A DNA stretch of 64,000 nucleotides from an uncultured Planctomycetota bacterium. GTDB lineage: Bacteria; Planctomycetota; Planctomycetia; Gemmatales; Gemmataceae. The notes below the pieces were generated by a model that ran no database searches, had not been told where the DNA came from, and saw nothing but the letters and a program-made list of their open reading frames with translations. Shown here in pieces: positions 14,371 to 46,773 of this stretch (position 1 is the stretch's first letter; each line of letters opens with the position of its first letter). The position numbers were made by a program, and so were the translations under genes. Location of the stretch: contig CAWIEZ010000001.1 in NCBI GenBank assembly GCA_963835245.1, positions 156,543-220,542 of the forward strand, read 5' to 3'.

Positions 14371-14451
14371 GTAGGGTGGGTCGAGCGCAGCGAGACCCAC
14401 CGGGGAGTGGCGGGTTCCCCGGTGGGTCTCGCTGCGCTCGACCCACCCTAC
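14371..14451. repeat. 36-bp perfect inverted repeat (9-nt loop) in a convergent intergenic region
   Basis: gtagggtgggtcgagcgcagcgagacccaccgggga / loop gtggcgggt / exact reverse complement. Lies at the left edge of the lower-GC island. Confidence 0.9.
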
Positions 14452-14490: not shown

Positions 14491-14967
14491 TCACGACACC
14501 GAGGGAAGCGGGAGAAAGATTATCGGCGTTCCCTCTTTGATGACCTTCAAGAAGACCGTATCGATCTTACCCTCGCCATATCCATAGAGAACCGGCCGTT
14601 CCTTTTTCAGTAGTTCAGGGAGCCTCTTCTTATCGAGAGGTTTACCATCGCTGCCGATCAGCTTGATTTCCTTGGCATCGTAGGTTTGATCTTCCCAACC
14701 TTCGACTGTCTCGTAAAAAGTGTGTTTTTCTTCAACTTCCTTACCATCTCGAATGATGCGCGTTGCCGTCAGCGAGACATAGCGACTTGTCCAGATTTTG
14801 AGAACGAGTTGACCTTTCTTATTCAGCCGTGCCATCGCCGCCGAAAGATTCCATGATTCTGATAAGACGGGAAACGGTGGAGGCGGTTTGGGAGCAGACG
14901 GCGTATCGGCGCACAGTCCCGTCGCCACGATGGCTCCAAGAATCGCCACGAATAGCATGCGTTTCAT
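14491..14967 (-). CDS. hypothetical secreted protein
   Basis: Start MKRMLFVAILGAIVATGLCADTPSAP (signal). ~158 aa. No domain hit. The 20-bp repeat array lies directly upstream. Confidence 0.5.
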   Translation of the reverse strand: MKRMLFVAILGAIVATGLCADTPSAPKPPPPFPVLSESWNLSAAMARLNKKGQLVLKIWTSRYVSLTATRIIRDGKEVEEKHTFYETVEGWEDQTYDAKEIKLIGSDGKPLDKKRLPELLKKERPVLYGYGEGKIDTVFLKVIKEGTPIIFLPLPSVS

Positions 14968-15016
14968 GTCAGATGCTCCTTTCAGGGGCTTTGCAATAGA
15001 ACTGCCAAAATGACAG

Positions 15017-15092
15017 GCGTTCTCTTGCAGGCCAGTTCGTTTTCTTTCAACTGAATGGGTTCTCTTGCAGATGAACGGGTTTTCTTGCAAGC
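15017..15092. repeat. array A: 4 direct repeats of core TTCTCTTGCA(G/A) at exact 20-bp spacing
   Basis: Cores at 15020, 15040 (degenerate TTTCTTTCAA), 15060, 15080. 27-53 bp upstream of the minus-strand gene start at 14967. Confidence 0.85.
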
Positions 15093-15113
15093 CGCCATCG
15101 GGCAACAGTTTAG

Positions 15114-15440
15114 CTAAGGATTGGCGTTGCCAGCGTGAGGATTCGCCCCTCCCTGCTGTGGAGGCAGAGCTTGCTTCGCAATAATTACGCCCGTAACCAC
15201 TGTCCCGGCTGGCAAAGAGATTTGAGCGCCCCCGTCATTAAAGACGTATGCGTGGGCAAGGGTGATCGTAAGATGAGCGCCAATGGGCAAGTTAGCCGCA
15301 ACGTCATCAACCAGCACTGGACGACTTCCCCCGACCCAGATGTCCAAGGCAATGTTGTAGCGAAACACGGTTTGTTCCCCCTCGCCTAGCTCTAGCCAGC
15401 CAACCCTCGTGGTGGATTGTAGGGGAAAGCTGCGGGACAT
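15114..15440 (-). CDS. hypothetical protein
   Basis: 108-aa ORF in the island. Coding-like but no domain. Confidence 0.35.
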   Translation of the reverse strand: MSRSFPLQSTTRVGWLELGEGEQTVFRYNIALDIWVGGSRPVLVDDVAANLPIGAHLTITLAHAYVFNDGGAQISLPAGTVVTGVIIAKQALPPQQGGANPHAGNANP

Positions 15441-15463
15441 CCCAGCAACGGCTCAGTGGATGC

Positions 15464-15754
15464 TCACCGCCCCGAAAGACGAATCTTGTGCCCGCCTTTG
15501 GTGGTAAACTCCTCGGCGTTTGGCGGCTCGTAGGTCAAGATGGCCTCTCTTGCCAGCATTGCGGCATCTCGAACGCGATCCACGGCCCGGTCCCTATCCA
15601 CGGACCACGGCACGTTCTCAATTACCACCTTGGCGAACGCCTTCGCCGCTTCGTTGATAGCAGCGTATCGTTCTGCGTCCTCTGGCCGAGGGAACTTGCT
15701 GGCAAAATCGCGGTCCAGTTGCTCGATGCGTGTTTCATCAACAGATTTGAACAT
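15464..15754 (-). CDS. hypothetical protein
   Basis: 96 aa. AAGGAG RBS 7 nt upstream of the ATG at 15754. Confidence 0.5.
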   Translation of the reverse strand: MFKSVDETRIEQLDRDFASKFPRPEDAERYAAINEAAKAFAKVVIENVPWSVDRDRAVDRVRDAAMLAREAILTYEPPNAEEFTTKGGHKIRLSGR

Positions 15755-15771
15755 ACTGCTCCTTAAAAAAA

Positions 15772-15796
15772 GAAACGGGCCGGTTAAGGCCCGTTT
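15772..15796 (-). terminator. rho-independent terminator-like hairpin (AAACGGGCC-GGTTAA-GGCCCGTTT) with 7-U tract on the minus strand
   Basis: Palindrome followed (minus orientation) by the TTTTTTT run at 15762-15770. Downstream of the transposase/small-protein operon. Confidence 0.55.
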
Positions 15797-15826
15797 TAAG
15801 AGAGTGTCGTTGGCGATTTTTTGTGA

Positions 15827-16093
15827 CTACTTCACGCGCACGACTACAACCTCTTCGCCGCACCACGGACAGAACCGTATCTCGGTGAGGCCCAAAATGC
15901 AGTTGCCACTCCTCTGCATGTGGTGCGACGTGAAGATGTTCACTTCCCTGCTGGTGGTGCGCCGGTGGCCTTTGACGCCGAAGCCGACAAGGATGTCCCA
16001 CTCGTCCTGCATCTCTCGACAGCAAAAGTGGACAGCGATTTGCTCGTAGACAGTCTCGTAGCGACCACAACCAGATCGGTATGTAACGCGCAT
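15827..16093 (-). CDS. small Cys-rich (zinc-ribbon-like) protein co-transcribed downstream of the SWIM-DDE transposase
   Basis: 88 aa (…HFCCREMQ…CPWCGEE…). GAGGAG RBS overlaps the transposase stop. Start is 12 nt after the transposase stop. Confidence 0.45.
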   Translation of the reverse strand: MRVTYRSGCGRYETVYEQIAVHFCCREMQDEWDILVGFGVKGHRRTTSREVNIFTSHHMQRSGNCILGLTEIRFCPWCGEEVVVVRVK

Positions 16094-16104
16094 GGTGCTA
16101 CTCC

Positions 16105-17379
16105 TCAGTTCAAGAGGGCAGGGACGGCTGGCTTCTCCGCAGGCCAGAACACCGGCTCGACGCCTAACTCGATCTGCGATTGGTGGATGACACAGATGTT
16201 GTGGCAGAGGAACTTGCACAGCACTTCGTTTTTCATCGCCACGTCCGTCCTGCTCCGCACATGGTCGCGGAACTTCGCCTTCACCATGCTGAACGTACTC
16301 TCCGCATTGCTGCGCTGATGGTAATGACTCAGGAAGTCCTCGCGGTGAAGCTGGTAGTACAGGTACATTTTCTCCCACAGGCTTCCTGCCTCACCGGGTT
16401 GGCTGTTGCACTTGAAGGGAATGAAGGCCGTGCCGCCAAGACGCTGCACCAGTTCAAGGTTGTCGTGGCTGAGGTAGCCCTTGTCGGCGGGCACTTCCTT
16501 GACCGTGAAGTTCTTGGCCGTGGTTTTCACGAGGTCTTCAAAGAGCGGACAGTCGTTCGCGTCCCGGTCCAAAATCTCAACCGACGTGACGATGTTCGTC
16601 TTGACGCCGCAGATGGCATGAGCCTTCACCCAATCATGCCCGCTCCGCGTTGTGCCGTACTTCTCGTCGAACCACCGCACGAAGCGGCTGGTGGAGAAGC
16701 CGGTGCTGTCGGGGGCGAAGACGGTTTCGACGGCCCGGAGCGGCAGACTGCTCTGGACGATGAGTTGCTTGAGAAGCGGCGTCATCGGCTCGTATTCGAG
16801 ATAGGCACACACGCTGACGCTGTGCATCTTGTGGGAGAGGTAGCCTTTGGCGTAGGCATGTTTCAGGTCGGTGTCGAAGCGTCGGCTGGAAAAGGTCGTG
16901 TAGACCTTGAGGGCTGAGGCGAACACCATGTCCGACATCTCGGTGCGTTTCCGACCCGTCTTGGGCTGCGGGGCGGGAGGCACGGTGCGGCACAGGTCGA
17001 ACAGGAGCGCTTGAAAGCGGTCCTTCTCGGTCATCTGGGCTTCGTTGTACTTCGGCCAGTCCTGCTTGTAGGTCTTCTTCTCGGTGAACGTGATCGAGCG
17101 GGTTTCCGTCACCGTGCCGTCTGGGTTTTGTTCGCGGCGAATGGTGATTTCGACGGCGTACAGGTGCTTGCACTTGTGACCTTCTTCCTTGTGGTCAGGA
17201 CAGGTGCAGGTACAGTGGGTCGGGTCTACTTCGTACTTTTTGTCGTTCTTGGACTGCGACGGCACGAGCCAGATGCCATCATCGCGGCGCTGAAGCTTGC
17301 AGAGCGCGGCGATGATGATGCCGCGCTCCTCGCGTAGCTTGGCAGACGTGGGCTTGGGGGTGGTGGTTTGAGCGGTCAT
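16105..17379 (-). CDS. IS4/IS5-superfamily DDE transposase with N-terminal SWIM zinc finger (copy 1, intact)
   Basis: SWIM CxCxnCxH (CTCTCPDHKEEGHKCKHLYAV). DDE_Tnp_1 signatures ADKGYLSH and HQRSNAESTFSMVKAKF (R..E..F..K). 424 aa. Confidence 0.8.
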   Translation of the reverse strand: MTAQTTTPKPTSAKLREERGIIIAALCKLQRRDDGIWLVPSQSKNDKKYEVDPTHCTCTCPDHKEEGHKCKHLYAVEITIRREQNPDGTVTETRSITFTEKKTYKQDWPKYNEAQMTEKDRFQALLFDLCRTVPPAPQPKTGRKRTEMSDMVFASALKVYTTFSSRRFDTDLKHAYAKGYLSHKMHSVSVCAYLEYEPMTPLLKQLIVQSSLPLRAVETVFAPDSTGFSTSRFVRWFDEKYGTTRSGHDWVKAHAICGVKTNIVTSVEILDRDANDCPLFEDLVKTTAKNFTVKEVPADKGYLSHDNLELVQRLGGTAFIPFKCNSQPGEAGSLWEKMYLYYQLHREDFLSHYHQRSNAESTFSMVKAKFRDHVRSRTDVAMKNEVLCKFLCHNICVIHQSQIELGVEPVFWPAEKPAVPALLN

Positions 17380-17515
17380 AGCGAAAAATCCCTTTCCGGT
17401 TCACGGCGGGATGCGCTATAATGCTCTTGAGCAGAACGCATTCGGGCGCGACCCGCCTGAGTGTGTCTTGGCCCGCGCTTCTGTTACCAGCAGAGGCGCG
17501 GGCTTTTCTTTCTGC

Positions 17516-17526
17516 CTACATTGTAG
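17516..17526. promoter_or_regulatory. candidate RHH operator palindrome CTACATTGTAG in the transposase/RHH divergent promoter region
   Basis: The same CTACA-N-TGTAG palindrome recurs in the copy-2 divergent region (23030-23040). Related half-sites at 17591-17600 and 22947-22956. Confidence 0.35.
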
Positions 17527-17604
17527 TAAACATCTGTCCACGAATCAATAGCGGTAGACATTTTTTGTTTGACTTTTTGCTACTTTTTGTCTACACTGAG
17601 CGTC

Positions 17605-17814
17605 ATGGTACGACGAAGGAAAGACCCGAAACTCAGGATGGCAAAAGACCTTCGCATCCCCGTTACGGATGAGTTGAAGCGGTTGATTGAGGAAGCAACC
17701 AGCGATGAACCGGAAGGGATGGCGGCTTGGGCGAGGGGTGTTTTACGGGAAGCCGCTCAGAGGAAGGTGTCAGGCCGCGAGCGACCACAGGAGCCGCCCG
17801 ACGAGAAGGCGTAA
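17605..17814 (+). CDS. ribbon-helix-helix (Arc/CopG-like) small DNA-binding protein, divergent from transposase copy 1
   Basis: LRIPVTDELKRLIEEA...WARGVL aligns with LRIRLTEEERAMLDQVA...WARSEL of the 22748..22942 protein. Both sit divergent to a SWIM-DDE transposase. Confidence 0.5.
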   Translation: MVRRRKDPKLRMAKDLRIPVTDELKRLIEEATSDEPEGMAAWARGVLREAAQRKVSGRERPQEPPDEKA

Positions 17815-17875
17815 GCAACTTCGGCTGCGGTCCTTGCGGTCGTGGCAGCGGGCGTGTATGCTGTTGAGCTAGACG

Positions 17876-20128
17876 GTGGCGGTCGGGACAGTCCTCACCG
17901 AGCCGTCTGAGTCGCTTTTCGAGAGGGGCCGAGCGATGGCCCAACGCGAAAGTCCCACTCAGTTCGAGCTTGAGGCAGGCGCTCAAGTTCCCCACACACC
18001 CTATTGGCTCGTTCAGAGCATTGGCAAGGGATACTTCGGGGAAGTCTGGAAGGCCGTCCATCCGACGAGGGGCGAATTATACGCCCTCAAGTTCTGCAAG
18101 AGACGAGAGGCTCTCCCCTCGTTTCGTAACGAGGTACGGCATCTCGACCGGATCAAGAAGGCGGGCACTTTCGAGGGTTTCGTCGTCCTCAAAGAAATCT
18201 TTGACGAAGAGACCCGCGAGTTGCCCTTCGTCGCCTACGAGTACATTGAGGGCGTGGACTTTGGGAAGCTCCTCGAAAAGCGCTTTGCCGAGAGTGGGCG
18301 GTTCACCCCGTTTGAGGCAGCGGAAGTGATCTACGAACTGGCGAGCATCATGGCTCGCATCCACACCCTCAAAGACCCCATCGTCCACCGCGACCTCAAA
18401 CCATCGAATATCCTCCTTCTCAACGACCGACCGCCGTGGCGGTTCAAGATCGCGGACTTCGGACTGGGCGTCTTGGCGGTGGATGAGGCTCGCGCCGAAG
18501 AACTCACTCTGACCGACATCGGGCGCTGGATGCCGGGGGCCGGTACTCTTTTGTATATGTCCTACGAGCAGCGCTACCCTGAGCATGTGGGCGATCTTGG
18601 AAATCCATCCGATGACGTTCATGCGCTCGGAGTGATCTGGTACGAACTACTAACCAAAGGGCTGCACCAAACCTGTCTCCCGTGGACGTGCGCAATCGGA
18701 GAAAAGCCTCGTCTCAAGTGGCCTTTTTGGCCTCCGAGCCTAAGTCCCAAGACCTTCCCTTGGAAACGTCTTCGGAAAATGTTGCTCAAGCGCGGCATGA
18801 CGGAGCCAGAAGCAGACTTGCTTGAGTCCTGCCTGAAACGTCGTCCGCATCGGCCAGAACATGCCGGGGTGCTGGCGGCAAAAATCCGTGAGCTATACCC
18901 GCCACTCCGAGAAGAGGCACGCAAGGACGCTGCCGAACTGGAACGACAACGGCGAACTGGATGTGACTGGCTAGGATGCCTTTATCGGGTTGCCAAGAAG
19001 CAATTGGATACATGGAGCCAAGGTGCAAACCACTCCATCCCAGAAGCACACTGGCTCAAAGGTTTGTGCTTCCAGCATGGCATCGGCATGTACGCCGATC
19101 TCGACAAGGCGCGGGAGTGCTTTAGGTGGGCCTCCATCGCCGAATATCCTAATGCTCGGTGTGACTTGGCACTGCTGGACGCTGAGGATCAACGCGAACA
19201 AGCACTGGAACTTCTCAAGAAGGCTGCGGACCAAGGCCATGCGGAAGCTGCCTTTCGGCTCGCCAAGCTATTGTCAGAAGGCAGAGCGATTGACGTGCTT
19301 CCTTTCGTGCCTTCGGGCGACCCGGATGCTATTGCTGCATTGGTGACATGGAACGGCGAAGACGAAACAGGCACAGACTGTTGGGCAGGGGATCAGCAAC
19401 TCCTCGCACGTTACATTCTCCATTTATGCGACGGAGGAGAAGCACCAGAGCTTCCTATTGGCGTCCAATATGATGAGTTTGAGCGCCCGCCAAACGTGGA
19501 TATATTCGTTCTTGGCTATTCTTCGTGTGGAGTGCCACCCATCCGACTCTTGCTCGATTGTCCCATTGGCGAACTGCTCAATCTGTCGCCAGAAGTCAAT
19601 CATCATCTCGTAGAAGTATTTGGTCGTATGTCAGAAGAAGAGATGAAAGTGCTTCCGCCAAGACTGAAAGACATCTTGTCGCTCACAGAGAAAGAGTATT
19701 CTCTTAAAGGGGGAGCCGAATGCACATTTGCGGCGATGCGAGCGATGCTGGCTCAGTTGTGGTGTGATCCGTGGCTCATTGCGCAGCAGAAGACGAGAGA
19801 GTTCGTTGAGAAGGCTGCAAGCCTTGGATGCGCCAAGGCTCAGTTATGGCTTGCCAAGGTGTGCGATGAACAGGAAAGACCAGTAGAGGCCGAGAAATGG
19901 CTTCGCCTTGTGGCTCGACGTGAGAATTGGGAGGGGACGTGGCAGGGGCAGTTGCAACTCGCCAAACAGTTATTCGCTTTTTTCAAAACCCACGAGAAAA
20001 CAGATGGAGCCAAATGGTGTTTAGACGAGGCTTTTTCATGGTGCGCGCGTGCCAAGACTATCGCAGACGAAGTTGCTTGGATTAGGAGTGGCGGCGATGA
20101 ATTACTCGACAGAATATGGGCAAGTTAG
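17876..20128 (+). CDS. Ser/Thr protein kinase (Hanks-type) fused to C-terminal Sel1/TPR-like repeats
   Basis: Kinase subdomains GKGYFGEV…ALK, HRDLKPSNILL, DFG. C-terminal Sel1-like units (AHWLKGLCFQHGIGMYADLDKARECFRWA; DQGHAEAAFRLAKLL). The start may be the Met at 17936. Confidence 0.8.
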   Translation: MAVGTVLTEPSESLFERGRAMAQRESPTQFELEAGAQVPHTPYWLVQSIGKGYFGEVWKAVHPTRGELYALKFCKRREALPSFRNEVRHLDRIKKAGTFEGFVVLKEIFDEETRELPFVAYEYIEGVDFGKLLEKRFAESGRFTPFEAAEVIYELASIMARIHTLKDPIVHRDLKPSNILLLNDRPPWRFKIADFGLGVLAVDEARAEELTLTDIGRWMPGAGTLLYMSYEQRYPEHVGDLGNPSDDVHALGVIWYELLTKGLHQTCLPWTCAIGEKPRLKWPFWPPSLSPKTFPWKRLRKMLLKRGMTEPEADLLESCLKRRPHRPEHAGVLAAKIRELYPPLREEARKDAAELERQRRTGCDWLGCLYRVAKKQLDTWSQGANHSIPEAHWLKGLCFQHGIGMYADLDKARECFRWASIAEYPNARCDLALLDAEDQREQALELLKKAADQGHAEAAFRLAKLLSEGRAIDVLPFVPSGDPDAIAALVTWNGEDETGTDCWAGDQQLLARYILHLCDGGEAPELPIGVQYDEFERPPNVDIFVLGYSSCGVPPIRLLLDCPIGELLNLSPEVNHHLVEVFGRMSEEEMKVLPPRLKDILSLTEKEYSLKGGAECTFAAMRAMLAQLWCDPWLIAQQKTREFVEKAASLGCAKAQLWLAKVCDEQERPVEAEKWLRLVARRENWEGTWQGQLQLAKQLFAFFKTHEKTDGAKWCLDEAFSWCARAKTIADEVAWIRSGGDELLDRIWAS

Positions 20129-20520
20129 TTCATCGGCGGCGGTAGCTGACTCTGTGACGGGAAGTGCTGTGACAGATTACCCTGCTCCAAACGCTGTTTC
20201 TTGTTGGCGAGGTATTTGTAAACGGGCTGAAAGGCGTTCATTGCTTGACTTGACAACTTTTCCAGTTCTTCCGCGTTCACTTGTTCATCATCAAGCCAAG
20301 CATTTTCAAGCACTCCGTCCAAGTAGGAGAGTTTCTTGTACGTTTCAACCGCCCATTTCAGCGCTTCATCGAGGTTACGCCGGTCTGCTTCTTGTTCCAA
20401 GCGTGCTATATTCTCGCGCGATTGGTTGAATTGTGGCTGTGGCGGTTGCTCCCCCGGCAAGCGGTTCAATGCTTCACGAATGTTCTTTCGGCCCTTCTGC
20501 CAATCTTTGAAATAGCCCAT
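20125..20520 (-). CDS. hypothetical protein
   Basis: 132 aa starting MGYFKDWQKGRKNIREALNR. Coding-like. The ORF-track N-terminal extension overlaps the opposite-strand gene and is not credited. Confidence 0.45.
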   Translation of the reverse strand: MGYFKDWQKGRKNIREALNRLPGEQPPQPQFNQSRENIARLEQEADRRNLDEALKWAVETYKKLSYLDGVLENAWLDDEQVNAEELEKLSSQAMNAFQPVYKYLANKKQRLEQGNLSQHFPSQSQLPPPMN

Positions 20521-20613
20521 AATGCTCCCCAATGACTTTGCAGATATATAGAGCAAGACAGGGTTTTTTTTTGATGAAAGCGCATTTGACCAACCGCCAA
20601 GAGGCCGAGCGCC

Positions 20614-21063
20614 TTGTCCAGCAACAGGGCTTCGGCATCCTCGCGCCAACTCTACCAGCACATCGCGGACTCCAATGCCACCGAATGCACCTTCCACTTG
20701 ATGCCGCTGCCCGCCAAGCAAGTCGAACTGATCGTCAGCGACAACGACTCCCACCGCTTCACGGACCTGAACCACGTCCAAGCGGTCTTCAATGAATTAC
20801 TCATGTTGGCCTACTGCCAGAAGGCCAAACTCGCCACAACGAAGGGCACGGTCGTCTTCACGGAGCAGGGCATGGAAACGGCGCGCCTGCGGACGAACAT
20901 GGGCGCGGAGTTCTGGGCCACACTGGAAGGTGATGCCGAGCGCTACCGGCAGTTGGTGCAGGAGCTAGAGCGGGTGGTGGTGAGGCCGGGCTTACGGTTG
21001 GTTGTCCTTGTCCAAGAAGACGGGACGAGGATCGTCCGTGACGAAGAGGCCAAGGCACAATGA
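20614..21063 (+). CDS. hypothetical protein (possibly starts ~20563 with a frameshift near 20620)
   Basis: 149-aa ORF. The upstream in-frame-shifted segment MKAHLTNRQEAERLVQQQGFGI looks coding. Stop overlaps the next gene (ATGA). Confidence 0.4.
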   Translation: MSSNRASASSRQLYQHIADSNATECTFHLMPLPAKQVELIVSDNDSHRFTDLNHVQAVFNELLMLAYCQKAKLATTKGTVVFTEQGMETARLRTNMGAEFWATLEGDAERYRQLVQELERVVVRPGLRLVVLVQEDGTRIVRDEEAKAQ

Positions 21064-21413
21064 CCTACCCCGTTTACTTCTTGCGCCTCGGCGATGAACT
21101 ACGGGTCGTCTCCTCCCAAAAGGACATCGGCCACACCGACTTCTGGGAACAGACCGTCTCGCACATCGTCGCCAAGCACTACGGTATCCCGCAGCCGAAG
21201 CTGGCGAACCTGCCCTACTGCCAGCGAAGAGGCCGCGTCGTGGGGAATACGGTGTACTACGGCGAACGGTCTGCCCCTGAACTGCTGTGCCTGCTCCGCG
21301 AGGCGGTGGGCAACGATGAACTGGTGTTCTGCCATGACGAACACGAGAAGCGGCTTCGGGAGGACGTGCGGCAGTTCAGGCGGCTGGTGCGCCGAGCAAG
21401 GCAGTCAAGCTAA
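21060..21413 (+). CDS. hypothetical protein
   Basis: 117 aa, translationally coupled to the upstream ORF. No domain recognised. Confidence 0.45.
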   Translation: MTYPVYFLRLGDELRVVSSQKDIGHTDFWEQTVSHIVAKHYGIPQPKLANLPYCQRRGRVVGNTVYYGERSAPELLCLLREAVGNDELVFCHDEHEKRLREDVRQFRRLVRRARQSS

Positions 21414-21634
21414 GGGCTTGCGCTTTTTCTTGGGGCGGGGTACTATATTCAAGTAGAGGCTTGCCGGTTATGCGAACGAGGCTGTAAAAGTGGGACACCC
21501 CCAAGCTCAAGCCGCCCCCGTTGCTATCTATCCCTGCTTAGGGGATTATCGGACATGGGACGGCACGCAATGGTCAGCAAGGGGCGTGTCCTGCCCTCCA
21601 TTGTATCGCATCCGAGTGAGCGGAAAAGCATAAA

Positions 21635-21665
21635 CGCCACGGCTCATCACCGTGGCGTTTCTGAC
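21635..21665 (+). terminator. terminator-like hairpin CGCCACGG-ctcatcac-CCGTGGCG + TTTCT
   Basis: Read from the sequence. Lies downstream of the 21060..21413 gene, immediately before array B. Confidence 0.4.
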
Positions 21666-21757
21666 GTTCTCTTGCAAATTGACGAGTTCTCTTGCAGGTT
21701 CAGGAATTCTGTTGCAACCTGACGGGTTGCCTTGCAAAATGGTCTTCTATTGCAAAG
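21663..21757. repeat. array B: 5 direct repeats (TTCTCTTGCAA / TTCTCTTGCAG / TTCTGTTGCAA / TTGCCTTGCAA / TTCTATTGCAA) at a 20-bp period
   Basis: Cores at 21668, 21688, 21708, 21728, 21745. Same orientation as array A. Confidence 0.9.
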
Positions 21758-21810
21758 CCCCTTTCAGGGAGAAACGGTGAGCGATTCGGATAATTCCTTG
21801 ATAATATCCC

Positions 21811-22004
21811 GATAAGAGCGGCGTTGCAAGGAAACGCCATTCTGCAATAGAACTCTCCCACTTGCAAGAAAACTCCCTCGCCAACCTTATCTACCTGAAC
21901 AGGCGCGCACATCTTAAATAATTCTTCCATTTCTTGCAACCAGTTCTATTGACACCCCAAGAACACTTCTTACAATCAAGAAACAGGAAGAAATGTTCTT
22001 GGGG
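21811..22004. repeat. array B2: further TTGCAAG-type copies in both orientations, the 12-mer CGATAAGAGCGG, and a CCCCAAGAACA…TGTTCTTGGGG hairpin
   Basis: gcgttgcaaggaaacgc (itself a palindrome), cacttgcaagaaaactcc, atttcttgcaacc. The exact 12-mer cgataagagcgg is shared with 26132-26143. Hairpin at 21955-22004. Confidence 0.7.
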
Positions 22005-22222
22005 TCGCTAACCAGTGGACAAGCAGGCCGAGTTCGAGACCATGATCCAGCGGCATCTAACCCGCGCTCACAAGCTCCGCGCGATCCAGCAAATGATCGC
22101 CGAAGACCCCGGTATTGTTCCTGACATACTGGAGATATTGACGACCTCCGCGTGCGCACCCGTCGCCTCCGCGCGCCGAGGCCCGACGCCGCGTTGATGC
22201 CAAGACACAGGCCGAGAAGGTC

Positions 22223-22504
22223 GTGGCCTTCTTCAAGGCAAACGGCAATACGATGGCCTCGGTTCGCCAAATCGCTGACGCAACGGGCCTGACGAGGAAT
22301 ACGGTGAACGCCTTGTTCTACAACAGCAGCCAGAAAGGTCTGTTCAAGTCACTCACGATAGGGAAGAAGCGGAAGTTCTGGCGGCTGAAAGAGGACGAGC
22401 AGGACATGGATAGCGAGATGTCGCTTGAGGAGCTTGCGGAGATGGGCTTCGACGAAAGCGATCTCGATGGCGGTTCGGAGGACACGGACGAGCCAGAGGA
22501 GTAG
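22223..22504 (+). CDS. small winged-helix/HTH-like protein with acidic C-terminal tail (may extend to ~22015 if a frameshift is assumed)
   Basis: SVRQIADATGLTRNTVNALF… HTH-like segment, KKRKFWRL, then a D/E-rich tail. First gene downstream of the repeat arrays. Confidence 0.45.
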   Translation: MAFFKANGNTMASVRQIADATGLTRNTVNALFYNSSQKGLFKSLTIGKKRKFWRLKEDEQDMDSEMSLEELAEMGFDESDLDGGSEDTDEPEE

Positions 22505-22747
22505 CCAGTTGAGCTACGCCATTTTGCGGTCTAAAGAAAGGAGGGCAGCAATGACAAACGAGAGTGGCCGACCGGGTGGCCCACGAACGAAGCAAGGGCG
22601 GTAGGGTAATCCACCAAGATACCCCCTACCGCCCTTGACCCCGGCACGTCAGGCTTGCAGACGGCCTTGACCACACTTGTCGAGGCCCCGGAGATGGTCT
22701 GCACTCCGGGGCCGCTCATATTGATTTTAACGATGCAAGAAACATCG

Positions 22748-22942
22748 TCAAGTCTTTTTTGAGATTTCTTCCAAAGCTTTTTTCGCCAAGGCGATTAGCT
22801 CCGACCGCGCCCAAGTGGACGTATCGAGAGTCCTCGTCTCGGCAACCTGATCCAGCATGGCCCGCTCCTCCTCCGTGAGACGGATGCGCAGGACATTCTC
22901 GCGGGCCTGAGTTTCCAGCTTCTTTTTCCGTGATCCAGCCAT
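22748..22942 (-). CDS. ribbon-helix-helix protein, divergent from transposase copy 2
   Basis: MAGSRKKKLETQARENVLRIRLTEEERAMLDQVAETRT… Homologous to the 17605..17814 protein. ATG at 22942 confirmed by reverse complement. Confidence 0.5.
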   Translation of the reverse strand: MAGSRKKKLETQARENVLRIRLTEEERAMLDQVAETRTLDTSTWARSELIALAKKALEEISKKT

Positions 22943-23029
22943 GAAACACATTGTAGCCACACGCCTACCCCGCCACAAGACCGCGACGATTGTTCTGCCT
23001 ACCAACCTTGAGTGCGCGGTCCAACGTGG

Positions 23030-23040
23030 CTACACTGTAG
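23030..23040. promoter_or_regulatory. candidate RHH operator palindrome CTACACTGTAG
   Basis: Same palindromic motif as 17516-17526. Sits between the divergent RHH and SWIM-DDE genes. Confidence 0.35.
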
Positions 23041-23079
23041 CTATAGTGAACGCGGGTATAGTTATGGCTGGGCCTTCCG

Positions 23080-23767
23080 ATGGACCTCCGAGAGTTAAAG
23101 GGCTTGGAACTGGCGGCGCGGGTGAAAATCACCTACGTCGATGGCATCTGGTACGTTCCCTCGCAATCCGGCAAAGGCAGGTACGAGGTTCGGCTGAGTC
23201 CCAACCCAGAATCCTGCACCTGCGACGACTTCCAGCTTCGCCAGAAGCCATGCAAGCACATTTACGCCGCCCGCAACGTCCGCGAGCGGGAGCATGGCGG
23301 CGAGGCCGTGGTCATCGACACGGACACATTGCCGAAAAAGAAGTCCTCCAAGCAGGACTGGCCGTTGTACAACAAGGCGCAGATGACGGAGTTCAAGCGG
23401 TTCCTCGTCCTCCTCCACGATCTCGTCCAAGGCGTTGAGGAGCCGCCACAGCCGCGCACTGGGCGGCGGCGGACGCTCATGGCCGACATGGTGTACGCTT
23501 CGGCCCTCAAAGTCTACATGACCTTTGCCAGTCGCCGCTTTGACTTCGCCTTGGATTGGGCCAAAGAGAAGGGCTACATCTCGCAAAGGAAGATGCACCC
23601 TGTTAGCGTCTGCGCCTTCCTTGAAAGCGACCTGATGACCCCGGTGCTCCAGAAGCTCATCGTCCAGAGCAGCCTGCCGCTTGTATCCATCGAGAGCATT
23701 TTCGCGCCGGACTCTAGCGGGTTCAGCACGTCGCGGTACGTCCGCTGGTACGACGAGAAGTATGGTG
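23080..23767 (+). pseudogene. SWIM-DDE transposase copy 2, truncated by IS3-family insertion
   Basis: Colinear with copy 1 (about 60 percent identity by eye) through …YVRWYDEKYG, then diverges exactly at the IS3 left terminal inverted repeat (23768). The DDE C-terminal ~180 aa is absent. Confidence 0.7.
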
Positions 23768-23831
23768 TGGACTTCCCCACGATTAGTGGACAGCCAGTTA
23801 AGGGTGTATACTCACCCTGGGAGGTCCAGCA

Positions 23832-24128
23832 ATGGCGAAAACACGACGCACCTACACCCCGGAGTTCAAGGCGGAGGCTGTCAAGCTCGTCACCGAGCAG
23901 GGCTACTCCGTTGCCGAGGCCGCACGCTCCCTCGGCATCTGCGAGAACCTCATCCGCAACTGGAAGCAAACCCTCGAAGCCCACGGGGAACACGCCTTCC
24001 CCGGTCGTGGCAAGCTCTCCCCCTTCGAGGAGGAGAACCATCGCCTCCGCGCTGAGAACAAACGTCTCTTGGCGGAGCGCGACATCCTAAAAAAAGCGGC
24101 GGCGTTCTTCGCCAGGGAGGCGACATGA
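23832..24128 (+). CDS. IS3-family transposase OrfA (HTH)
   Basis: MAKTRRTYTPEFKAEAVKLV…, leucine-zipper-like C-terminus, typical IS3 OrfA. Confidence 0.85.
   Translation: MAKTRRTYTPEFKAEAVKLVTEQGYSVAEAARSLGICENLIRNWKQTLEAHGEHAFPGRGKLSPFEEENHRLRAENKRLLAERDILKKAAAFFAREAT
24089..24096 (+). promoter_or_regulatory. A AAA AAG slippery heptamer for programmed -1 frameshift (orfA to orfB)
   Basis: ctaAAAAAAGcgg, located just before the orfA/orfB overlap. Standard IS3-family mechanism. Confidence 0.6.
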
Positions 24129-25102
24129 CCTACCGCTTCATCGACCAACACAAGGAGCAATGGCCCGTGCACTGGCTTTGTGACACTCTGGAGGTTTCCC
24201 CCGCCAGCTACTATGCCTGGCGGCGATGCCTCCGCAGCGCAGGGGAGCAACGACGCCACATCCTGCTCGTGGAGATCCGCGCCATCCATGCCCAATTCAA
24301 GGCCCGTTACGGCAGCCCGCGCATCCACGCCGAACTGGTGGCCCGCGGCCACGACTGCTGCGTCAACACCGTCGCCAAACTGATGCGGGAGGCCGGTATC
24401 GCTGCGAAAACCGCGCGGAAGTTCCGCTGTACCACCACGGACTCCGACCACGACTTGCCTGTAGCGGAGAACCTCCTGGACCGCCAGTTTGATCCCGCCG
24501 CTGCCAACGAGTCCTGGGTTGCGGACATTACCTACATCCCGACTCGTGAAGGCTGGCTGTACCTGGCCGCCGTCGAGGATCTGTACGCTCGGCGGGTCGT
24601 TGGCTGGACGATGGCCGAACACAGGGAGAGCCGGTTGGTCGTGGACGCCTTGGCGATGGCCGTGCAGCGACGATTGCCGGGCGAGGGTCTGCTGGCGCAC
24701 TCGGATCGAGGCAGCCAGTACGCCAGCGAACATTACCAACTCCTCTTGGCCAAGCATGGGATCACATGCAGCATGAGTCGTCGGGCGGACTGCTGGGACA
24801 ACGCGCCGATGGAGAGCTTTTTCGCGTCGCTGAAGAAGGAACTGGTCCACGACGCCGACTTCGCCACGCGGTTGGAGGCGCGGGCGGCAATATTCGAGTA
24901 CATCGAGGTGTTCTACAATAACCAACGCCGTCACTCCTCGTTGGGATATGTGTCCCGGCGGAGTACGAGCAATCATCTACCCCTTAACTCCGTGTCCACT
25001 TTTCGTGGGGAATTCCATCAAGTCGAACCCAATTGTTCTTGGCGAGGTCCACGTTGTACCACTTCTTCACTTCGGCTTTTGTCACCGGAGATTCTTGAGT
25101 AA
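24125..25102 (+). CDS. IS3-family transposase OrfB (integrase core, DDE)
   Basis: …WVADITYIPT…GWLYLA…SDRGSQY…NAPMESFF… The ORF has no stop inside the right terminal repeat and reads about 28 codons into flanking DNA. Confidence 0.8.
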   Translation: MTYRFIDQHKEQWPVHWLCDTLEVSPASYYAWRRCLRSAGEQRRHILLVEIRAIHAQFKARYGSPRIHAELVARGHDCCVNTVAKLMREAGIAAKTARKFRCTTTDSDHDLPVAENLLDRQFDPAAANESWVADITYIPTREGWLYLAAVEDLYARRVVGWTMAEHRESRLVVDALAMAVQRRLPGEGLLAHSDRGSQYASEHYQLLLAKHGITCSMSRRADCWDNAPMESFFASLKKELVHDADFATRLEARAAIFEYIEVFYNNQRRHSSLGYVSRRSTSNHLPLNSVSTFRGEFHQVEPNCSWRGPRCTTSSLRLLSPEILE

Positions 25103-25373
25103 GGACCGGCTCGACGGCCTTCACGGTGTCGGTCTTCGGCTGCTGGACAAGAACAGCAGTGGGTACAGGAAGTGGCGGGGCCGTTGTAATCGTTTGAGGT
25201 GTTGAGAATAAGTCCTTCACCTTGTTTGCTGGTATCCACTTCGTCAAGCCCTCGCGCCACATCATGTCGGTCGGCAGAAGTTGACCTGATTTCGCAAGCA
25301 TCCGAAGTTCGGTTGATGAAACCGGACCATGCTTGCTCTTGCCGTCTCTCGTGTAAAACCACTCTTGCGCCAT
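24984..25373 (-). CDS. DUF4339/GYF-like domain protein, 3' end replaced by the IS3 terminus
   Basis: MAQEWFYTRDGKSKHGPVSSTELRMLAKSGQLLPTDMMWREGLTKWIP. GGGAGA RBS. The last 11 codons (…GIPHEKWTRS*) are encoded by the IS3 right terminal repeat. Confidence 0.6.
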   Translation of the reverse strand: MAQEWFYTRDGKSKHGPVSSTELRMLAKSGQLLPTDMMWREGLTKWIPANKVKDLFSTPQTITTAPPLPVPTAVLVQQPKTDTVKAVEPVLTQESPVTKAEVKKWYNVDLAKNNWVRLDGIPHEKWTRS

Positions 25374-25783
25374 TGCAGTTCTCCCGGTTGGCGGGGCGCA
25401 TGAAAAAGGAGCGCCGAACACTTGGCCGCTCCAGTGGCCCCCGCCAAGGGGCGCAGACGAACAGCACAAGACCCGACGCCCCTCTTGCGAGGGGCGTGCA
25501 AGCCAAGGGCTGCTTCGTCTGGATACAAGAGCGGTTGCCCGCTCAGGTTGGCGGTTTCACTGGAAGCAGTTCTTGACGCACGCGCGTCAATCAGGTTGTC
25601 CCCGTGGCCCTCGCAACGGTCAAAGCTCGTCGTCCTCCTTCAATGCGCAAAACGGTAATCGGCTGGCACTCGCCAGCCGTCACGATGATAACCGAGCAGA
25701 GAGCACTGTTCAAGAAGCCAGCGAAAAATCGGCTACCGACACTCCTTTATGGAGTACCGAGGCATAAACTACCGGGAGATCTG

Positions 25784-26062
25784 ATGATGAAAAGCAGGTG
25801 CATCATGGAAAAGACGCTGAAAGTGCCGTTCGAGGAGATCAATCTAGTCCGCATTCGCTGCAAACAGTGCGGGGACGCTGCCATCGAGATGCCGCTCTCG
25901 GCACTGGTGAACGGGCCGTTGATGTGTCCGGGGTGCGCGAAGGATTTGCGGAAGTCGGCTGCGAACGTGGACAAAGCGGTGACAGACATAGCGAACGGTA
26001 TTGTAGCTCTGAAGGACAATCCCATGATCGAACTTCAGTTCGTGCTGCCATTCGACCAGTGA
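25784..26062 (+). CDS. small zinc-ribbon protein (CxxC…CxxC)
   Basis: IRCKQCG…LMCPGCAKDL. GGGAGA RBS before the ATGATGAAA. Confidence 0.45.
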   Translation: MMKSRCIMEKTLKVPFEEINLVRIRCKQCGDAAIEMPLSALVNGPLMCPGCAKDLRKSAANVDKAVTDIANGIVALKDNPMIELQFVLPFDQ

Positions 26063-26067
26063 GGTAG

Positions 26068-26144
26068 CTTTGCAAGAAAACTCAGCCGTATGCAAGAGAA
26101 CTCATCGTTTTTCGGACGTTTTCTTGCAACGCCGATAAGAGCGG
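26068..26144. repeat. array C: TTGCAAG-type copies (2 on bottom strand, 20 bp apart; 1 on top) plus the CGATAAGAGCGG 12-mer
   Basis: ctttgcaagaaaactc (26068), gtatgcaagagaactc (26088), cgttttcttgcaacg-ccgataagagcgg (26117-26144). Confidence 0.8.
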
Positions 26145-26197
26145 AAGAAACCACTTCAATTTGCTCCTCACCACAGGCCATTCCCACGCTTTCTTCT

Positions 26198-26314
26198 CGT
26201 TCCCAAGCTCTGCTTGGGAACGCTGGGCGAGAAGCTCCGCTTCCCGTCCCACGCAGCGGCCAGCCGCGAAGCAGAGCTTCGCAACCGTGCGTTCCCAAGC
26301 TCAGCTTGGGAACG
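26198..26314. repeat. REP-like element family F1 (three hairpins, ~120 bp): CGTTCCCAAGCTCTGCTTGGGAACG … CGTTCCCAAGCTCAGCTTGGGAACG
   Basis: Outer hairpins at 26198-26222 and 26290-26314, with a central weaker inverted repeat. The same architecture (ACGC/GCGT in place of AAGC/GCTT) is at 46584-46693. Confidence 0.85.
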
Positions 26315-26498
26315 AGAGAGCAAGAGCCACCCCCAGAATCGGCGCAGGCACCCTGCCGCTCGCGGAGTTGATTGCACCACTGGCGAACGAGTGCGGCTCG
26401 GCATAGGATGGCAGGCGCGGTTCGGAGTAAAGTCAGTTATCCGGCCAGTACCCCCTTCGATATTCCGTCCCGCCCTGTTCCACAAGGGAGACGCCAAC

Positions 26499-46540: not shown

Positions 46541-46583
46541 GTGCAAAATCCGAAAACAAGGCGGGAAACATCTCATTCATCCT

Positions 46584-46693
46584 CGTTCCCACGCTCCGCG
46601 TGGGAACGCACGTCTGGACGCTCTGCGTCCCGTACCGCCGAAACGCGACGCGGAGCGTCGCCTGCTTGCGTTCCCACGCGGAGCGTGGGAACG
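46584..46693. repeat. REP-like element family F1, second locus: CGTTCCCACGCTCCGCGTGGGAACG … CGTTCCCACGCGGAGCGTGGGAACG
   Basis: Outer hairpins at 46584-46608 and 46669-46693, with a central GACGCTCTGCGTC…GACGCGGAGCGTC inverted repeat. Lies in the divergent intergenic region between the permease and pepF. Confidence 0.85.
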
Positions 46694-46773
46694 AGAAGGC
46701 GGCGAACATCTCATTTGATATTATGCCTTTGAATTGCTTTCGGATTTCGGATTTTGAATTGAAGGATCAAACC

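Follow-up and report, generated by a model that had tools for sequence, protein, structure and literature searches.

Elements of the IS5/IS903 type are textbook minimal insertion sequences. In IS903, the invariant GGC terminus serves catalysis and the inner part of the inverted repeat is the binding site, and in the compound transposon Tn903 a resistance gene is bracketed by two IS903 copies in inverted orientation. A composite transposon has its cargo enclosed by a pair of complete insertion sequences, with a single duplication around the entire structure. The SWIM zinc finger is named after SWI2/SNF2 and MuDR, and in Mutator-like elements (MULEs) it follows a Mutator/IS256-like catalytic domain. 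The IS903 group is characterized by terminal inverted repeats (TIRs) of approximately 15-27 bp and a 9-bp target-site duplication (TSD); ISPko1, an IS5 family member of this group, is 1050 bp long with 18-bp inverted repeats and 9-bp direct repeats (PMC3281130). In a transporter insertion sequence (tIS), or unit transposon, one inverted-repeat pair encloses a transposase gene together with passengers, and the whole moves as a unit (PMC9330008). Here, we analysed a window of 64,000 nucleotides from an uncultured Gemmataceae bacterium of the Planctomycetota (contig CAWIEZ010000001.1, assembly GCA_963835245.1), in which an initial annotation had noticed two inverted transposase genes with a SWIM finger around a kinase gene. 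We conclude, with a probability of roughly 0.85, that positions 14978-26142 of the window hold two unit transposons of the tIS kind, related to each other but distinct and inserted independently, which lie end to end in opposite orientation and 60 bp apart. Both belong to a large, apparently undescribed family of IS903-like, passenger-carrying elements whose transposase has an added SWIM zinc finger.

The terminus of this family was found first, in several metagenome-assembled genomes (MAGs) whose near-identical copies share 2.7-4.7 kb of DNA, far beyond the 1.25-kb transposase gene. The shared DNA always starts and ends with GGCTTTGC..., in inverted orientation, and a search for that terminus in the window returned two sites, at 14987 (+) and 21759 (-). 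These delimit element 1 (14987-21759, 6773 bp), whose TIR GGCTTTGCAATAGAA matches between the ends at 15/15 positions (16/20 over 20 nt) and is flanked on both sides by the TSD CCTTTCAGG. Element 2 (21820-26133, 4314 bp including an inserted IS3 element) has the TIR pair GGCGTTGCAAG[G/A]AAACG at 21820 (+) and 26133 (-), which matches at 17/20 positions and is flanked by the TSD GATAAGAGC. When the window was scanned for pairs of GG[CT][TG]TTGC ends 1.5-12 kb apart whose repeats agree in 13 or more of 20 positions and whose flanks agree in 7 or more of 9, exactly two pairs were obtained, both with 9/9 TSDs (chance 4^-9 per pair). The search for TIRs that the initial annotation had suggested therefore located one pair per element, GGC[T/G]TTGCAA..., and the span of 15827-23767 it had marked cuts across the true units, which cover 14978-26142. 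A third family element near 33.4 kb, indicated by two weak motif matches, was ruled out by inspection of the sequence and a rescan for ends.

At the level of genes, the initial annotation was accurate: the two inverted, diverged SWIM and DDE transposase genes (tnp1 and tnp2) are present, each with a divergent, inward-facing small gene of the ribbon-helix-helix (RHH) type, and the interior contains the kinase gene with Sel1 repeats, small open reading frames (ORFs), a 20-nt repeat array at 21666-21725 and a helix-turn-helix (HTH)-like gene. Its further proposal was a composite-transposon-like arrangement; in such a structure of the Tn903 style, the two inverted copies would mobilise the 4.9-kb segment with the kinase. 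The inverted transposase genes do bracket the kinase and HTH genes, and the outermost ends at 14987 and 26133 are also inverted and both read GGC.TTGCAA. However, the stretch between the transposase genes contains two element ends, copies of two different TSDs and, at 21760-21819, 60 bp of host DNA in which each element has one TSD copy. The outer flanks, CCTTTCAGG and GATAAGAGC, each match an internal TSD copy and not each other, the repeat cores of the two elements are unlike (TGCAATAGAA versus TGCAAGGAAA), copy 2 is without its catalytic half, and relatives bear their passengers inside single elements. Different outer flanks mean that the two were not inserted as a single unit, and we regard the composite reading as very improbable. 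Each copy lies inside its own TIRs and its own 9-bp TSD; the kinase gene, which lies within 14987-21759, is reassigned as a passenger of the single, intact element 1, and the HTH gene is carried by element 2. Across both elements the GC content is 0.53-0.59, versus 0.60-0.64 in the flanks.

Two adjacent and inverted elements could also have arisen through a local inverted duplication of one ancestral element instead of two insertions. The transposases, judged by eye to be colinear and roughly 60 percent identical, are indeed homologous, with a computed identity of 56% over 231 aa (E = 2e-82), but colinearity does not extend beyond 23766, where copy 2 is truncated. The homology proposed for the two small proteins is weak in pairwise alignment (25% identity, E = 0.004), but profiles built for each from its near relatives align with an hhalign probability of 96.7% (E = 4e-10). 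This divergence, together with a separate TSD for each element, argues against a duplication, as does the fact that element 1 has a closer relative at L002 (79%) or L012, and element 2 at L013, all in other genomes, than the two have in each other (L numbers denote related loci). Element 2 shares 75% identity with an intact L013 element over its first 1949 bp, which comprise a small ORF, the HTH gene, RHH2 and the N-terminus of tnp2. We consider a duplication to be close to negligible in probability; the internal ends, the unequal outer TSDs and the closer relatives elsewhere point to two separate arrivals.

We obtained 79 related loci, mostly from Gemmataceae/Planctomycetota and Acidobacteriota, by scanning one genome per species. 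The same end scan delimited elements of 2.7-7.9 kb in 35 of these loci; the 9-bp TSD is perfect in 34 and matches at 8/9 positions in the remaining one (L036), and genes beyond the transposase are present in every delimited element. The expectation that such elements would be multi-copy and mobile elsewhere was borne out by the survey: the 2.7-kb elements at L009, L010 and L024 are 99.96% identical and have a different perfect TSD at each site, and near-identical 4.7-kb elements at L061 and L062 likewise differ in their perfect TSDs. Because near-identical copies are flanked by different perfect TSDs, whole elements, passengers included, have transposed recently.

Searches with profile hidden Markov models (HMMs) supported the proposed fusion of a SWIM finger to an IS5-type DDE transposase. 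Pfam DDE_Tnp_1 (PF01609) matches tnp1 with an E-value of 4.4e-20, and SWIM (PF04434) matches tnp1 and tnp2 with 25.1 and 33 bits, respectively (cutoff 19.6). The catalytic triad D224, D299 and E360, the residues Y353, R356 and K367, and the SWIM ligands C58, C60, C70 and H72 do not vary among 22 relatives. The 310-aa ISPko1 transposase aligns over its entire length with tnp1 residues 103-397 (25% identity, E = 9e-14), including the N-terminal WPxYNEA motif, DSTG, ADxxY and YHxRSxxE, and the tnp1 signature Y353-R356-E360-K367, or Y-(2)-R-(3)-E-(6)-K, aligns with that of ISPko1. NF033579 is the best NCBIfam model for both tnp1 and ISPko1 (94.6 versus 383.9 bits). Judged from these alignments, tnp1 is a complete IS903-group-like enzyme with an N-terminal SWIM addition of approximately 100 residues. 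A search with the full protein returned 5323 representatives at 90% clustering, labelled at most 'transposase', a set that may include more distant IS5-type transposases. The SWIM region (the first ~100 residues), searched against 1.84 billion representatives, returned 301 proteins with E ≤ 1e-10, most of those listed being shorter than ~424 aa. Among PLSDB plasmids, tblastn with tnp1 found no family member and only distant IS903-group elements (24-25%).

The ends of the elements also contain subterminal repeats. For the core motif TTCTCTTGCA, the window has 18 occurrences where 3.4 are expected, and 13 of them fall within the four element ends. When 34 delimited elements were taken together, the core particular to each was roughly 150 times as frequent in the terminal 160 bp as in the interior, and the offsets of the cores from the end recur at 6, 24, 44, 64 and 84. 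What the initial annotation had called repeat array B is the subterminal repeat set of element 1, with cores 44, 64 and 84 nt from the end, and the offsets of this region (6, 44, 64, 84) recur in relatives. Across the family GGCTTTGC is constant, and positions 9-20, which vary from one element to the next, supply the sequence of the subterminal copies, a pattern that fits the IS903 division between a catalysis terminus and an inner binding site. The SWIM-bearing N-terminal region is the obvious candidate for reading these repeats.

Element 1 is intact; element 2 has decayed. An IS3-family element interrupts tnp2 and contains orfA (23832-24128) and orfB, which from its coordinates begins at 24125 in the -1 frame; its transposase scores 349 bits with NF033516 (cutoff 160). 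IS3 family elements produce a short target duplication of 3-4 bp. This copy is without a flanking direct repeat, with GGTG on one side and TCAA on the other, and the adjoining GYF gene is truncated, which indicates that a deletion followed the insertion. This adjacent deletion explains the missing catalytic half of tnp2, whose C-terminal half was absent from the whole window in a tblastn search. The IS3-family insertion and the neighbouring deletion, in which the transposase lost its catalytic half, clearly disabled element 2.

To classify the small partner genes, we derived HMMs from the two classes that occur upstream of transposase genes and counted their matches in the 79 loci. The initial annotation had the transposase always paired with an RHH gene, which does not hold: the RHH class is present in 30 loci, a zinc-ribbon gene (CxxC...CPxCKSPYWNRPR) takes the same place in 13, about five loci have other RHH-like genes and a few have HTH genes, and the remainder have none. 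L002, the locus with the closest relative of tnp1, is among the 13 with a zinc-ribbon partner. Family members thus usually have a small partner of a nucleic-acid-binding type. RHH2 itself matches NikA-like, DUF6290 and RelB profiles below threshold (18.7 and 17.4 bits, cutoff 27). Among 12 members of the RHH family, nine match NikA-like, eight DUF6290, five TacA1 and one RHH_1, with a best E-value of 1e-5 and matches counted up to E = 0.1 without a curated cutoff; the matches are consistent, although sub-threshold. The RHH family profile matched the CopG-family regulator 7ak7 (E = 8e-4) and VapB26 (E = 2e-3) in the Protein Data Bank (PDB). RHH1 had no direct match in Pfam or the PDB, and its subfamily profile had no RHH match in the PDB; RHH1 is tied to the RHH type only through profile-profile homology with the RHH2 subfamily (hhalign 96.7%). 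Homologues of RHH1 with 64% identity lie upstream of the transposase in L007 and L012. An AlphaFold2 (AF2) monomer of RHH2, built on a two-sequence alignment with a predicted local distance difference test (pLDDT) score of 72.6, has an extended segment at 19-23 and helices at 24-36 and 41-63; the model is suggestive, being compatible with an RHH fold but not decisive.

Exact CTACANTGTAG palindromes occur only twice in the 64-kb window, at 17516-17526 and 23030-23040 (0.17 expected, counted at ≤1 mismatch). Both overlap -10-like hexamers, and a block related to the palindrome is conserved in L013 and L007. The palindrome may be an operator. CTACAnTGTAG was rejected as a family-wide operator, as the other RHH-bearing loci have no exact copy of it, and it remains a local candidate. 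A 16-pair GC-rich hairpin (17470-17504), followed by a T-rich run, separates the predicted promoter of tnp1 from its start codon; this hairpin may serve as an attenuator or block read-through.

Several results weigh against two mobile IS903-like units with this organization. The NF033579 score of tnp1 is below the cutoff of 140, and only profile positions 108-287 of 289 are covered. In the AF2 model of tnp1, built on a 22-sequence alignment, the core has a pLDDT below 50, although the N-terminal 210 residues are confident, and a Foldseek search of this model against the PDB returned nothing below E = 0.7. None of the other loci with an RHH gene contains the exact CTACAnTGTAG palindrome. Intact ends without matching 9-bp flanks were seen at four identical 3.4-kb copies of a single MAG (L041-L044) and at one copy of another MAG (L057); copies may have recombined with one another, or the assembly may have been joined at repeats. 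Lastly, in the one window and in metagenome scans, neither a second copy nor an empty site was found for either element. The empty site of element 1, reconstructed as ...GATGCT CCTTTCAGG GAGAAACGG..., had zero matches in the metagenome scan, and the terminal 20-mer of element 1 matched 27 loci, two with a transposase homologue (68-74%) and none with an identical copy.

This lack of a second copy or empty site would also be expected if both elements were immobile remnants, or if the transposase had been domesticated, with the structure kept as inherited chromosome content. Element 2 is indeed dead, and the exact tnp1 protein is on record from a single contig only. In contrast, tnp1 is full length and has kept all catalytic and zinc-binding residues, element 1 has repeat termini that agree at 15/15 positions, a TSD without mismatch and undamaged subterminal repeats, and relatives are demonstrably multi-copy. 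Fixed relics are therefore an unlikely explanation, and we favour two separately inserted unit transposons.

For the movement of these elements, we propose that the N-terminal region of the transposase, with its SWIM finger and IS903-like N-domain, would bind the element-specific inner part of the repeat and its subterminal copies. The enzyme would then cleave at the conserved GGC termini and make 9-bp staggered cuts at insertion, so that everything between the ends moves, as in IS903. The RHH protein would most likely repress the divergent promoters of tnp and its own gene. More speculatively, and with doubts that outweigh our confidence, the family could be an undescribed IS903-derived cargo lineage, mainly of Planctomycetota and Acidobacteriota, in which the SWIM N-terminus reads the subterminal repeats, a swappable RHH or zinc-ribbon partner controls or directs transposition, and copies land beside relatives and so build defence-type arrays. 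Preferential landing beside resident relatives, if true, would explain the end-to-end elements of the window. The coordinates of all features are given in Table 1.

Table 1. Features of the two unit transposons in the 64-kb window.
Feature	Position	Strand	Remarks
Element 1 TSD, copy 1	14978..14986	.	CCTTTCAGG; same 9-mer at 21760-21768, directly outside both inverted repeats
Element 1 end, transposase 3' side	14987..15090	+	TIR GGCTTTGCAATAGAA at 14987-15001; cores TTCTCTTGCA at 15020 and 15060, TTTTCTTGCA at 15080
Passenger ORF, 108 aa	15114-15440	-	ORF list
Passenger ORF, 96 aa	15464-15754	-	ORF list
Hairpin terminator	15773-15796	.	Terminator-like site beyond the two passenger ORFs
Small Cys-rich ORF, 88 aa	15827..16093	-	Ends ...CPWCGEE...; directly downstream of tnp1
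tnp1, intact, 424 aa	16105..17379	-	Pfam DDE_Tnp_1 and SWIM
Element 1 divergent control region, 225 bp	17380..17604	.	Between tnp1 and RHH1; promoter-like sites on both strands
Palindrome CTACATTGTAG	17516-17526	.	Element 1 control region; overlaps -10-like TACAAT for tnp1
RHH1, 69 aa	17605..17814	+	RHH type via homology to RHH2 subfamily
Ser/Thr kinase with C-terminal Sel1/TPR-like repeats	17876..20128	+	Pkinase E 1.4e-25; database protein starts at 17936 (730 aa)
Small passenger ORF	20125-20517	-	ORF list
Small passenger ORF	20614-21063	+	ORF list
Small passenger ORF	21060-21413	+	ORF list
Element 1 end, RHH/cargo side	21666..21759	-	Cores at 21667, 21687, 21707 (20-nt spacing), then TIR at 21745-21759
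Element 1 TSD, copy 2	21760..21768	.	CCTTTCAGG; pairs with 14978-14986
Element 2 TSD, copy 1	21811..21819	.	GATAAGAGC; same 9-mer at 26134-26142
Element 2 end, RHH side	21820..21875	+	Inverted repeat GGCGTTGCAAGGAAACG; cores at 21843 and 21863; 17/20 versus the copy ending at 26133
60-aa ORF	22015-22197	+	54% protein identity, same place in L013
HTH-like protein, 93 aa	22223-22504	+	39% protein identity, same place in L013; Pfam HTH matches weak
RHH2, 64 aa	22748..22942	-	RHH-type; 79% identical homologue in L013
Palindrome CTACACTGTAG	23030..23040	.	RHH2-tnp2 control region
tnp2 pseudogene, N-terminal 229 codons	23080..23766	+	56% identical to residues 15-242 of tnp1; no homology past the IS3 junction
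IS3-family insertion sequence, 1250 bp	23768..25017	+	37-nt inverted repeats (TGGA...TCCA), TG...CA ends; interrupts tnp2
GYF-domain gene, 3'-truncated	24984-25469	-	Start at 25469, runs into IS3 end; GYF_2 E 2.6e-15
ORF	25604-26062	+	In the part of element 2 beyond the deletion (25018-26062)
Element 2 end, transposase 3' side	26071..26133	-	Cores at 26071 and 26091; inverted repeat ending at 26133
Element 2 TSD, copy 2	26134..26142	.	GATAAGAGC; pairs with 21811-21819

In each window element, unrelated passenger genes flank the transposase-RHH core on both sides. The passengers of element 1 are the kinase-Sel1 gene and six small ORFs. The nearest homologues of the kinase are 50-55% identical in the kinase domain only, and its assignment to a named defence system was rejected: the PADLOC matches (mad6, PD-T4-6 and MkoA) cover only the generic kinase domain, and the homologues are ordinary planctomycete kinases. 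In L012, L023 and L028, the transposase is likewise directly followed on its own strand by a homologue of the 88-aa Cys-rich ORF (47-58% identity), so that this ORF is a conserved accessory gene of the subfamily and possibly a third core gene. The ORFs at 15114-15440 and 15464-15754 were assigned to no family, and those at 20125-20517, 20614-21063 and 21060-21413 had no family match; none of the five had a homologue in the related loci. The 96-aa ORF at 15464-15754(-) has a weak, sub-threshold match to the hairpin of Acb2/Tad1 (E = 1e-3, 19.7 bits versus a cutoff of 27), a family of anti-defence sponges. Passengers with a GYF_2 domain recur in three family elements, at 24984-25469(-) of the window and in L002 and L012.

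The passengers of the relatives were surveyed with Pfam and PADLOC in 81 larger ORFs from 32 relatives. Among them were GmrSD/RmrA-type nucleases (3), HEC-06 (2) and M78/CapP-like peptidases with HTH partners (3), and further type I and IIG methylases, a dCTP-deaminase-like protein, HNH, SocA/Panacea, parts of toxin-antitoxin systems, and others. In this raw survey of the relatives' passengers, defence-type genes look frequent. A tRNA-Ala(TGC) gene is located inside delimited elements at L051:4780-4855 and L053:7266-7339 and, lying within the element ends, travels as a passenger.

Regarding the sites of insertion, the insertion point of element 1 is 11 bp ahead of the start codon in the gene for a signal-peptide (secreted) protein at 14491-14967(-), and the duplicated 9-mer CCTTTCAGG overlaps the AAGGAG ribosome-binding site of this gene. 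The insertion therefore cut this gene off from its promoter and placed it downstream of the outward-facing end of element 1. Another family terminus is located within 150 bp of 12 of the 37 delimited elements, and in five cases the neighbour's end (...GGCAAAGCC) is exactly 9 bp away, which is the length of the TSD. Some loci (L052, L056, L067) have two or three tandem copies of the TSD. End-to-end placement was found in Acidobacteriota relatives (L051-L053, L056, L065-L068 and L077) and at 21760-21819 of the window, and the pattern suggests repeated insertion at or beside resident ends. Conserved non-coding blocks are present in the host-side flanks in four Acidobacteriota genomes (L051:7252-7560, L052:8693-9000, L053:8089-8400 and L066:7867-8170). 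They share GATACTTGGTTACCACTGTATACCTGG, a second copy of ATACTGGGTAACCAC, and TGGCACGG-N-TTGTAATGGA, which resembles a sigma-54 promoter, and hint at a preferred attachment region. The window also contains repetitive extragenic palindromic (REP)-like repeats at 14371-14451, 26195-26317 and 46582-46695: a perfect hairpin with 36-nt arms lies on one side of the transposon pair, paired GCGTTCCCAAGC...GCTTGGGAACG units lie on the other, and a further pair is located at 46.6 kb.

In the literature, ISfinder not being covered, we found no description of a SWIM-bearing, cargo-carrying IS903-like lineage or of a tIS with such a transposase. The databases tag the proteins of this family only as 'transposase', and this large family is apparently unannotated; recognition of its ends lets annotators delimit elements and their cargo in the genomes of Planctomycetota and Acidobacteriota. 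As in a tIS or unit transposon, a single TIR pair and TSD surround the transposase gene and passengers of each window element. In relatives (L009/10/24 and L061/62), whole units with passengers are multi-copy; the metagenome scan showed no identical copy of the window's own elements. Unlike the Tn3 family, the window elements have IS5-type chemistry and no resolvase. The likeness to Tn903, with inverted IS903-type copies around cargo, is superficial, because the cargo lies inside the ends of each window element and the TSDs are separate. Eukaryotic transposases of the MULE/MuDR type likewise combine a CxCxnCxH SWIM finger with a DDE domain, but here the finger precedes an IS5/IS903-like domain, so that this is a separate, independent fusion. 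The family is also a tractable system to ask for the role of a SWIM finger in a prokaryotic transposase.

The closest resemblance is to ISPko1 and the IS903 group. Shared features are the DDE_Tnp_1 domain, the D, D, E triad, Y-x2-R-x3-E-x6-K, colinearity over the whole length including W-P-x-Y-N-E-A, and the same best NCBIfam model. The ends of ISPko1 read GGCTCTGTTGCAC, and those of both start with GGCT.TG next to a 9-bp TSD; TIRs beginning with GGC are present in element 1 (GGCTTTGCAATAGAA), element 2 (GGCGTTGCAAG.AAACG) and 35 related loci (GGCTTTGC). The window family differs by an identity of only ~25%, an NCBIfam score below the cutoff and ~100 extra N-terminal residues with the SWIM finger. 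Its elements measure 2.7-7.9 kb and encode a 424-aa transposase, versus ~1.05 kb and a single ORF of ~310 aa, and they have a divergent regulator-like gene, variable passengers and multiple subterminal repeats, whereas the group has no passengers. The elements thus have the ends, TSD and catalytic features of the IS903 type and fall outside both the compact single-ORF definition of ~1 kb and the curated score cutoff. The same IS903 chemistry, ends and 9-bp duplication here drive elements that are three to seven times larger and carry variable passengers.

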